Shown here in pieces: positions 28,817 through 29,356 of a stretch of 64,000 bases of DNA. Both the position numbers and the translations under genes were made by a program. The notes beneath the pieces were generated by a model, which did not search any database, was not told the origin of the DNA, and worked only from the letters and a program-made list of their open reading frames with translations. The DNA is from Escherichia coli (lineage in GTDB: Bacteria > Pseudomonadota > Gammaproteobacteria > Enterobacterales > Enterobacteriaceae): NCBI RefSeq assembly GCF_003018255.1, contig NZ_CP027440.1; one strand, 5' to 3'. The number at the start of each line of letters is the position of its first letter. The stretch's first letter is position 1.

Positions 28817-29065
28817 TGGCTGGAGGTGAGTCAGTATCCGGAGTTGATAGCGCAGTTTTCAAGTGGTAATCAAACACGTATAAAACAAGGATTAATCGCA
28901 AAAGCACCTCTTGAAGGTTGGCATTATGGCCCTAAAGAAATCGTTAAAAAATTCCACATGTATCATTGTGTTGCGATTGAATATAGTGGCGAAATTTACG
29001 ATATTGATAATTTAAGGAGGGCACACCTCATTTGCATGATGAAATTTATTACAGGAGATAGTTAA
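28817..29065 (+). pseudogene. Degenerate orphan HNH DNase C-terminal module (frameshifted, catalytic His substitutions)
   Basis: ...GPKEIVKKFHMYHCVAIEYSGEIYDIDNL then frame change; HH replaced by YH; a different frame reads HLHDEIYYRR* (final His replaced by Tyr) relative to RLHDEIHYRR in the intact copies. Confidence 0.75.
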
Positions 29066-29356
29066 ATGTATAATTTTAAAGATAAAGTAGAAGATTACAC
29101 AGAGCGGGAATTCATTGAGTTGCTTGGCGAGTTTACAAATCCAACCGGGGATAACGCTCAATTAAAAGGGGAAGAGCTTGACAAATATTGGGATGATCTA
29201 GAAGAACATCTTACCAGAATTACACAACATCCGTTGATGAGCGATCTTATCTACTATCCTGCAAAGAAGGGAGATGATAAGCCTGAAAACATCCTGAAAA
29301 TCGTCAAAGAATGGCGGCGTTCGCAAGGATTGTCTTTGTTCAAAGATTCAGAATGA
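29066..29356 (+). CDS. Colicin/pyocin DNase immunity protein, variant 3 (intact; paired with degenerate orphan module)
   Basis: 96 aa, EDYTEREFIELLGE...HLTRITQHPLMSDLIYYP...ILKIVKEWRRSQGLSLFKDSE. Confidence 0.88.
   Translation: MYNFKDKVEDYTEREFIELLGEFTNPTGDNAQLKGEELDKYWDDLEEHLTRITQHPLMSDLIYYPAKKGDDKPENILKIVKEWRRSQGLSLFKDSE

Follow-up and report, generated by a model that had tools for sequence, protein, structure and literature searches.

Among the systems closest to the locus described here, cdiA and rhs loci carry orphan modules, in which a full toxin-immunity pair is followed by start-less, 5'-truncated toxin tips with their own intact immunity genes. Extra immunity genes beside truncated colicin genes are likewise known from the Col plasmids ColE3, ColE6 and ColE9-J, where they are read as being retained to counter toxins from other strains. 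A plasmid-wide survey found the same truncated toxin beside an orphan immunity gene on many plasmids, with Usp explicitly excluded (PMC12546727). PMC9990079 lists Poole 2011 and Koskiniemi 2013 in its effector table, which carries no description of the orphan concept.

A further described system is PAIusp of uropathogenic E. coli, with its subtypes Ia, Ib, IIa and IIb. The earlier literature on PAIusp and usp reportedly includes Kurazono 2000, Nakano 2001 and Parret & De Mot 2002. In strain Z42, usp is followed by orfU1, orfU2 and orfU3, which encode 98, 97 and 96 aa, and uspI is linked to orfU1 and uspII to orfU2 (Zaw 2013, PMC3685522). The aroP-pdhR site of PAIusp was given by Rihtar 2020 (PMC7142922). 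UTI89_C0121, the main gene of the homologous UTI89 locus, was named usp in PMC3203889 and Hcp-ET3-4 in a review (PMC6730261). Under the latter name, the same gene family and locus was reported to carry 'three duplications' of the immunity gene (Ma et al. 2017, as relayed in the reviews PMC6730261 and PMC6099711). The reading relayed there is that of a T6SS Hcp-fused toxin neutralised by all downstream immunity genes, and the genes of the UTI89 locus, which has the type II order (B, C, A), are treated as duplicates of one cognate gene.

The locus studied here shares its position, insertion site, Usp architecture and U1-U2-U3 order with PAIusp as published, from which the locus itself does not differ. 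Compared with the Hcp-ET3-4 reading, it holds three diverged immunity types, each behind its own toxin's remnant. As in the cdiA/rhs orphan modules, the PAIusp tips share homology with the main gene and recombine with it. Unlike in those modules, the carrier is an Hcp fusion and the third tip is dead, and recombination disarms the toxin instead of switching it, as seen in strain NR1441. The third cassette also resembles the Col plasmids in that an Im-family gene persists by a truncated nuclease bacteriocin gene, the truncation being shared among independent replicons; unlike on those plasmids, the PAIusp cassette is chromosomal and linked to type VI secretion.

The PAIusp island in the window

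The window, a 64,000-nucleotide stretch of the Escherichia coli contig NZ_CP027440.1, contains an AT-rich insert of ~4.4 kb that is flanked by aroP (24001-25374, minus strand) and pdhR (29779-30576) in the E. coli chromosome. The GC content of the insert is 33-41% except within the middle portion of usp, and that of the flanks is 50-56%. The insert encodes a 593-aa usp product and holds three immunity genes (98, 97 and 96 aa) and two toxin fragments. These fragments, of ~240 nt each, precede immunity genes 2 and 3 and are homologous to the 3' end of usp. The three cassettes repeat at intervals of ~690 bp, and all island features given below lie on the plus strand.

The main toxin gene usp (25900-27681; uspI type, RefSeq tssD, Hcp-ET3-4) was assigned from its 593-aa ORF, Pfam and RefSeq. 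Its product contains the Pfam domains T6SS_HCP (residues 28-139), Pyocin_S (309-450) and Col-Pyo_DNase (460-591), with an intact HNH motif (H561, H562, N577, H586, H590). The immunity gene of cassette 1, imu1/orfU1 (27681-27977), encodes 98 aa from the ATG at 27681, or 96 aa from the RefSeq start at 27687. Cassette 2 comprises orphan toxin tip 2 (28093-28372), a 5'-truncated uspII-type DNase tip annotated as a 78-aa ORF (28136-28372), and imu2/orfU2 (28375-28668; 97 aa). Tip 2 shares 97% identity with the 3' end of the main usp in strain 06-00048 and has an intact HH...N...H...H motif, making it, unlike tip 3, a potentially functional silent reserve. Cassette 3 comprises orphan toxin tip 3 (28783-29061) and imu3/orfU3 (29066-29356).

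On identical DNA, RefSeq labels the genes as tssD and three 'bacteriocin immunity protein' genes, tip 2 as 'HNH endonuclease signature motif containing protein' and tip 3 as 'hypothetical protein'. A spacer hairpin with a 13-bp stem (28684-28716; -17.7 kcal/mol, z = -4.4), which is not followed by a T-run, has an identical copy at 28002-28034. Another hairpin with a 13-bp stem (29379-29415; -17 kcal/mol, z = -2.65) lies 3' of imu3 at the pdhR-side end of the island.

The ORF sizes match those of Zaw 2013 exactly and the aroP-pdhR site matches Rihtar 2020; together with the RefSeq annotation, this identifies the locus as PAIusp and the intact ORF of cassette 3 as OrfU3/Imu3. By its gene order (uspI, then orfU1, orfU2 and orfU3), the ~4 kb island belongs to PAIusp subtype Ia. 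The label 'Ia' for this order is, we presume, that of Nakano 2001. The first-pass annotation of this DNA had described the third cassette without recognising the long-known PAIusp and imu3.

Tip 3 is a decayed DNase remnant

Tip 3 is a 5'-truncated DNase fragment whose frame is closed upstream by a stop codon at 28766-28768. The annotated ORF (28826-29065; 79 aa in RefSeq) reads VSQYPELIAQFSSGNQTRIKQGLIAKAPLEGWHYGPKEIVKKFHMYHCVAIEYSGEIYDIDNLRRAHLICMMKFITGDS up to its stop. Toxin homology begins 5' of the GTG, at ~28783 (FYQFPAFTDTLWLEVS...), a small correction to the start at 28826. The HH pair of the DNase motif is YH in tip 3 (KKFHMYH, against KKFQIHH in intact copies), with the Tyr codon at 28961-28963 and the His codon at 28964-28966. 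Downstream of it, after DIDNLR, one nucleotide is deleted between 29018 and 29019 (AAGGA/GGGCAC against AAGGATAGTCAC), as called against cassettes 1 and 2 and an intact relative, L005, described below. The shifted frame (29023-29061) reads TPHLHDEIYYRR and ends at the original stop, now TAG at 29059-29061. In this frame the final His of the motif is replaced by Tyr (29047-29049).

To define the residues that a DNase of this family requires, we used H102, H103, N118, H127 and H131 of colicin E9 and H314, H315, N330, H339 and H343 of Usp. Alignment to the E9 DNase places the two lost histidines of tip 3 at H102 and H131, with N118 and H127 kept; the catalytic and metal-binding residues thus read Y-H...N...H...Y where H-H...N...H...H is required. 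In Usp, H314A/H315A and H339A mutants are without nuclease activity and toxicity (Zaw 2013, PMC3685522). The Pfam model PF21431 (Col-Pyo_DNase) matches tip 3 over model positions 53-112 of 124 only (residues 1-64, E = 6.7e-9). The match stops at the frameshift, and no complete single-frame DNase domain is present. The YH dyad, the frameshift near DIDNL and the Tyr in place of the last His, all three reported in the first-pass annotation, are therefore real features of the sequence. Together with the partial Pfam match and the full-length imu3, they bear out its description of a decayed toxin tip beside an intact immunity gene.

It is extremely improbable that the 79-aa ORF encodes a functional protein, or that ribosomal frameshifting restores one, even though the ORF is a RefSeq CDS conserved in many genomes. 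Its GTG overlaps the sole GGAGG nearby, leaving it without a spaced ribosome-binding site, and positions 1-52 of the DNase model are missing. Two catalytic histidines would be gone even with the frame restored, the shift site has no slippery heptamer, strain 06-00048 carries an internal stop and the substitutions are mostly non-synonymous. A programmed frameshift was rejected on the same observations. Tip 3 is an inert, decayed remnant with no delivery domain, no usable start, lost histidines and a broken frame.

Cassette 3 has the layout of an orphan cassette: a full-length toxin-immunity pair precedes it, and neither a delivery domain nor a usable start is present in its toxin fragment. The potentially functional reserve tip that an orphan cassette may hold is absent from it.

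The lesions are old and fixed

The 69 bases from 29000 to 29068 run across the deletion and the second Tyr into the start of imu3. Of 5426 complete E. coli genomes, 1004 carry this junction at 100% identity and another 46 at 95-99%, so that it is found in 1050 of the 1058 genomes that have the locus. The whole of cassette 3 is at least 95% identical in 1051 of these 1058. The same tip lesions are present in EC958 (in two copies), 06-00048, NR1441, FDAARGOS_943, EC17CM2, BH100 and SCU-124, the seven strains whose type-C tip was translated or aligned. In 06-00048 the remnant has acquired an extra stop codon, indicating that its decay continues.

Repeats of ~690 bp could in principle mislead short-read assembly, and the first-pass annotation had named an assembly artefact as the finding that would overturn its account. 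Errors of assembly or sequencing are a vanishingly unlikely source of the frameshift and the His-to-Tyr changes. The genomes in which the lesion-spanning 69 nt are identical are independent and complete, they include Nissle 1917, CFT073, NC101, EC958 and UTI89, and the deletion lies outside any long homopolymer. The exact-match count of 1004 genomes rules out an artefact, and with the lesion fixed in ~1050 independent complete genomes that objection falls away. The lesions of tip 3 are old and fixed.

Ancestry of tip 3

Tip 3 is a mosaic. Its 5' half, which corresponds to the immunity-binding region, shares 96% identity with tip 2. The HNH half, by contrast, shows 86% DNA identity to the intact toxin gene of L005 and only ~72% to the uspI and uspII tips, and the motifs TPHLHDEI and GGE[VI]YDIDNL are common to tip 3 and the L005 toxin. 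The latter is a 594-aa Hcp/Pyocin_S/DNase protein ending in ...GGEVYDIDNLRIVTPHLHDEIHYRR, with the C-terminal end TPHLHDEIHYRR. Directly behind it lies an immunity gene encoding a protein with 82% identity to Imu3 over the full length (83% in local alignment). Given the 86% identity of the toxin parts and the 82% identity of the immunity proteins, the HNH half of tip 3 descends from a third toxin type, cognate to imu3-type immunity.

L005 stems from gut-type metagenome assemblies and its flanks are not those of E. coli; a cluster look-up assigned its ProP protein to 'Enterobacteriaceae bacterium', a metagenome-assembled genome. A one-genome-per-species scan with an immunity profile for the host of the intact type-C toxin gave only relatives at 56% identity or less. 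Within E. coli, none of 59 sampled cassette-bearing genomes had a tssD- or HNH-labelled feature over cassette 3, a figure that reflects sampling and not an exhaustive scan. This annotation sampling and the junction count, which together are not exhaustive, revealed no intact type-C toxin in the complete E. coli genomes examined. The comparison with intact homologues proposed in the first-pass annotation has thus yielded an intact toxin outside E. coli, beside an Imu3-like immunity protein. Since an intact toxin of the L005 type exists, there is something for imu3 to protect against.

The imu3 gene and its product

The immunity ORF next to tip 3 is indeed full length, as first described: imu3 runs uninterrupted from 29066 to 29356, and its 96-aa product belongs to the colicin/pyocin DNase immunity family. 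The cluster representative to which Imu3 is 97% identical has PF01320 on record, and the 90% cluster comprises 1242 member sequences. Residues 4-94 match PDB structures of the pyocin AP41 immunity protein (E = 4e-18), Im7 (5e-17), Im8 and Im9. The helix III sequence of Imu3 is SDLIYYP, aligned with TDLIYYP in Im7; Imu1 and Imu2 carry DLIFYP instead. We take the helix III hot-spot to be that formed by D51, Y54 and Y55 in Im9. The 96-aa ORF thus combines family membership, full length and this hot-spot. Among the annotated E. coli loci examined, imu3 is a non-pseudo CDS in nine others that carry it, the sole exception being a frameshifted copy in genome GMF054.

The ribosome-binding site of imu3, AGGAGA (29053-29058), falls within the final codons (YRR) of the toxin remnant and is separated from the ATG by 7 nt; all three cassettes keep it (repeat family D4). 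Consensus scans for a promoter of cassette 3 gave promoter-like matches at chance level only, and as to a terminator, the spacer hairpins are without a T-run. We infer that read-through transcripts of the island are the probable template for translation of imu3.

Among the immunity genes expressed singly, imu3 was the best at rescuing usp-expressing cells, with 10.6% of control transformants against 2.4% for imu1, 4.1% for imu2 and 1.7% without imu (Crnigoj 2014, PMC3917654). The same study found no tight Usp-Imu3 complex. It reported that Imu3 binds DNA and RNA non-specifically and shields DNA from colicin E7, and proposed protection via non-specific DNA binding. Such a mode of protection is at odds with that of a classical specific immunity protein. 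OrfU1 alone suffices for UspI and forms a tight complex (Zaw 2013, PMC3685522). On Ma 2017, the review PMC6730261 states that all three immunity genes neutralise Hcp-ET3-4. That Imu3 does not bind Usp tightly is expected if Usp is not its cognate toxin, the true partner being a different one.

Recombination among the cassettes

Island arrangements vary among strains. The uspI-imu1 junction of the window occurs in ~262 complete genomes and the type II arrangement, in which imu1 is the orphan, in ~763. The order of immunity types is A-B-C in the window, B-C-A in UTI89, BH100, EC17CM2 and FDAARGOS_943, B-C-A-C in EC958, and B-C in SCU-124 and 06-00048. The orphan tips are 93% identical to each other and 65% identical to usp (repeat family D2).

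In NR1441, the main usp runs into the dead C tip (...EVSQEPELIAQFS/SGNQTRIK...FHIYH...DIDNLRRAHLICMMKFITGDS, then a stop). Here imu3 directly follows the chimeric usp, the intervening cassettes being deleted, and RefSeq flags tssD as frameshifted. This chimera shows that orphan tips recombine with usp and that tip 3 disarms it. In line with an orphan cassette, tip 3 thus combines homology to the main toxin at its 5' side with observed recombination.

In type II islands, the orphan tip that precedes imu1 also carries the YH lesion (FHIYH) and a stop, and the stretch from its 3' end into the start of imu1 shares 91% identity with the corresponding uspI-imu1 junction of the window. The shared lesion and the junction identity suggest that gene conversion takes place between orphan tips. 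The database protein P0004 is chimeric, combining an imu1 start with an imu3 body. The Enterobacter-like loci L008 and L009 have a remnant of ~100 nt left, with the segment just 5' of the immunity gene retained.

These exchanges raise the question of whether the dead tip is kept for its use as DNA, supplying imu3 with its ribosome-binding site and 5' leader, and providing homology for recombination between cassettes and usp. We regard this as unlikely, but compatible with our preferred reading of the cassette as an orphan relic. The AGGAGA in the last toxin codons, kept in every cassette, speaks for such a use. The identity of tip 3 to tip 2, 96% in the 5' half against 72% in the 3' half, points to ongoing gene conversion, the NR1441 recombinant shows exchange with usp, and the shrunken remnants of L008 and L009 still have the segment before the immunity gene. 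However, the same two loci show that most of the tip is dispensable, and cassette 3 has no promoter above chance. Recombination with tip 3 moreover destroys usp, so that it offers no benefit as a toxin reservoir.

Selective constraint and the retention of imu3

Between L005 and the HNH half of tip 3, the 32 codons compared give Sd = 1.3 and Nd = 8.7, an omega of ~1.6, whereas intact tips have omega values of 0.03-0.06. By these substitution patterns, tip 3 evolves without constraint. For imu3 against the L005 immunity gene, omega is 0.26 over the whole gene and 0.48 when the type-specific first 70 codons are taken by themselves. Within E. coli, the imu3-specific region shows few differences, most of them non-synonymous (V8I, E37V, K72E, N3D, D6N), and omega is 0.7-1.0 between imu3 alleles in the terminal position.

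Strong purifying selection on imu3 within E. coli, as apparent from omega values of 0.02-0.09, was considered and rejected: the synonymous differences cluster in the mosaic 3' end of the gene. This end has been exchanged between 'internal' and 'terminal' cassette positions, and the apparent constraint is therefore misleading. With too few changes in the specific part, the sequence support for purifying selection on imu3 within E. coli is weak.

One could accordingly ask whether imu3 is under no selection at all and, as a short gene not yet disabled, is simply carried along with the island. The omega near 1 in its specific part within E. coli, based on very few substitutions, would agree with this, as would the frameshifted GMF054 allele and a length of just 291 bp. 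We nevertheless consider such passive carriage improbable. The tip, of similar size (~240 bp) and age, has at least three fixed disabling lesions and lineage-specific stops, whereas imu3 is non-pseudo in every annotated locus examined but one. Between species, the omega of 0.26 for imu3 stands against 1.6 for the HNH half of the tip, and Imu3 is active in vivo and in vitro (PMC3917654).

What, then, keeps imu3? The first-pass annotation attributed its retention to protection against related toxins of competitors. This is a plausible reading, with a cognate toxin present in another enterobacterium. By analogy, bacteriocin plasmids keep a truncated toxin with an orphan immunity gene (PMC12546727), which makes competitor defence plausible here as well. 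As the main reason for keeping imu3, we give it an even chance.

Alternatively, imu3 may be kept mainly for self-protection, with the immunity proteins acting as cross-reactive, partly redundant (or DNA-shielding) inhibitors of the cell's own Usp, and competitors being irrelevant. In favour of this, imu3 alone gives the highest survival of usp-expressing cells and its product binds DNA and RNA (PMC3917654), and the three 'duplicated' immunity genes all neutralise Hcp-ET3-4, as stated in PMC6730261. Moreover, toxins with near-identical immunity-binding regions have different immunity partners (type B for the 06-00048 toxin, type C for that of L005), which argues for broad cross-reactivity. Imu3 also has the canonical YY in helix III, against FY in Imu1 and Imu2. 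However, OrfU1 alone is enough for UspI, with which it forms a tight complex (Zaw 2013, PMC3685522), and strains with just two imu genes exist. From the upstream remnant it follows that imu3 came in paired with a different toxin, and in NR1441 imu3 is retained despite a dead usp. We therefore see self-protection as the main cause as possible but somewhat doubtful. Self-protection through cross-reactivity is nonetheless at least as well supported by published experiments as competitor defence.

Discussion

We conclude that the third cassette is very probably an orphan-cassette relic of PAIusp, with a dead tip of a third type and a working imu3. According to this model, each orphan cassette would be a promoterless and start-less 3' fragment of a usp-type HNH DNase gene followed by a complete immunity gene. 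Cassette 3 would be the oldest relic, its fragment coming from a third toxin specificity. Silent and truncated, tip 3 could drift freely, losing two of four catalytic histidines and its reading frame, and these lesions would have become fixed before the usp-carrying lineages diverged. With its ribosome-binding site within the last codons of the dead toxin, its full ORF and its DNase-binding motif all retained, imu3 would encode a working immunity protein. It may be kept as a broadly cross-reactive Im-type protein, active against the cell's own Usp and against Usp-like DNases injected by competitors.

Much of this is already known: the locus, its three immunity genes and the function of Imu3 have been described, as has the orphan-cassette pattern in CDI, Rhs and Col plasmid systems. 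The toxin remnants, the mosaic ancestry of tip 3, the intact L005 relative and the disarming of the NR1441 type are modest refinements of a known system. The papers compared here, PMC3685522, PMC3917654 and PMC7142922, describe usp and the three imu genes and do not mention the toxin remnants between them; nor did the literature compared yield any account of the mosaic ancestry, the intact relative or a disarming event of the NR1441 type.

More tentatively, and with slightly less than even confidence, we propose that PAIusp is a working orphan-cassette array of a polymorphic Hcp-fused toxin rather than usp with three immunity genes attached. Its subtypes would then arise by recombination between usp and the silent tips, and type Ia islands, which carry a silent but intact uspII tip, could switch to uspII in one step. 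Under this proposal, E. coli would retain imu3 as its last trace of a 'UspIII' that is intact in an uncultured gut member of the Enterobacteriaceae, and tip 3 a recurrent disarming allele that spares immunity, as in NR1441. In the literature compared, we did not find this reading of PAIusp spelled out.

As a marker of extraintestinal pathogenic E. coli, usp is in wide use; it is also a reported genotoxin, with imu3 among its three protection genes. Our finding tidies a known locus and is a modest refinement, real but ordinary, rather than a discovery. With each imu gene standing behind the remnant of its own toxin, it would explain why PAIusp carries three diverged immunity genes and how its subtypes originated.

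Decay of toxin remnants and loss of cassettes

The dead toxin fragment directly before imu3 (28826-29065 in the window) is entered as an ordinary CDS, as are its RefSeq homologues, and a pseudogene flag is never given. Whereas older RefSeq entries name the product 'hypothetical protein', newer ones call it 'pyocin-S2/colicin E7-DNase domain-containing protein'. In strain NR1441 (L011, NZ_AP040215.1, 3000-5075), the main usp has recombined with this dead type-C tip. The product is a frameshifted usp with imu3 directly after it, and every intervening cassette has been deleted. Here the toxin is lost and the immunity is retained.

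A later stage of remnant loss is represented by the second cassette of two comparison loci on metagenome and MAG contigs, L008 and L009 (4292-4430), in which only about 100-140 nt precede the second immunity gene. The sequence MMKFITGD, fused to the called immunity ORF, is an out-of-frame reading of the toxin's last codons (HDEIHYRR). The first immunity gene of these loci falls in a 90% protein cluster that includes proteins named Enterobacter sp.

Two further rearrangements are associated with IS1. The 3' part of usp is interrupted by IS1 in one ST131-like isolate (L003, NZ_OX030701.1, 4128-4825), and in strain Z22-2 (L016, NZ_CP159750.1, 2788-3599) an IS1-associated deletion has taken out the entire island apart from 99 nt at the 3' end of an immunity gene.

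Variation among the immunity genes

The sole imu3 found with a frameshifted annotation is that of strain GMF054 (L038, NZ_CM183924.1, 766-1055), which could reflect either a true loss or a sequencing error. The database immunity protein P0004 is a chimera, in which the approximately 20 N-terminal residues are of imu1 type (MHDLKYKIYFYTEGEFLEML) and the remainder is of imu3 type; thus, recombination also occurs inside the immunity genes. In the window, imu1 has two in-frame ATG starts (27681 and 27687), the first of which shares one base with the usp stop codon. The protein is given as 98 aa in the literature versus 96 aa in RefSeq.

Hairpins and an inverted repeat

Each immunity gene of the window is followed by a strong hairpin with a 13-bp stem (28002-28034, 28684-28716 and 29379-29415; -17 to -18 kcal/mol). 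A T-run was looked for at these three hairpins and found at none. The first two are each spanned by a 47-aa antisense ORF, both of which are probably spurious. A 32-nt inverted repeat with 72% complementarity, linking the aroP-usp spacer (25472-25503) to the start of imu3 (29057-29088), is probably due to chance, as the DNA is AT-rich.

Possible exchange between tips

The 5' halves of the two orphan tips in the window (28093-28372 and 28783-29061) are 96% identical, whereas their HNH halves share only 72% identity. Moreover, in type II islands the orphan tip before imu1 also carries the YH lesion (FHIYH), in which the first histidine of the HH pair is replaced by tyrosine. Together, these sequence comparisons suggest gene conversion among the orphan tips.

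Tip 2 (28136-28372) is a silent uspII-type tip with intact catalytic residues; compared with the main usp of strain 06-00048, it matches the 3' end of that gene at 97% identity. A type Ia strain could become a B|C type through just one recombination between usp and tip 2, with imu1 being deleted in the process.
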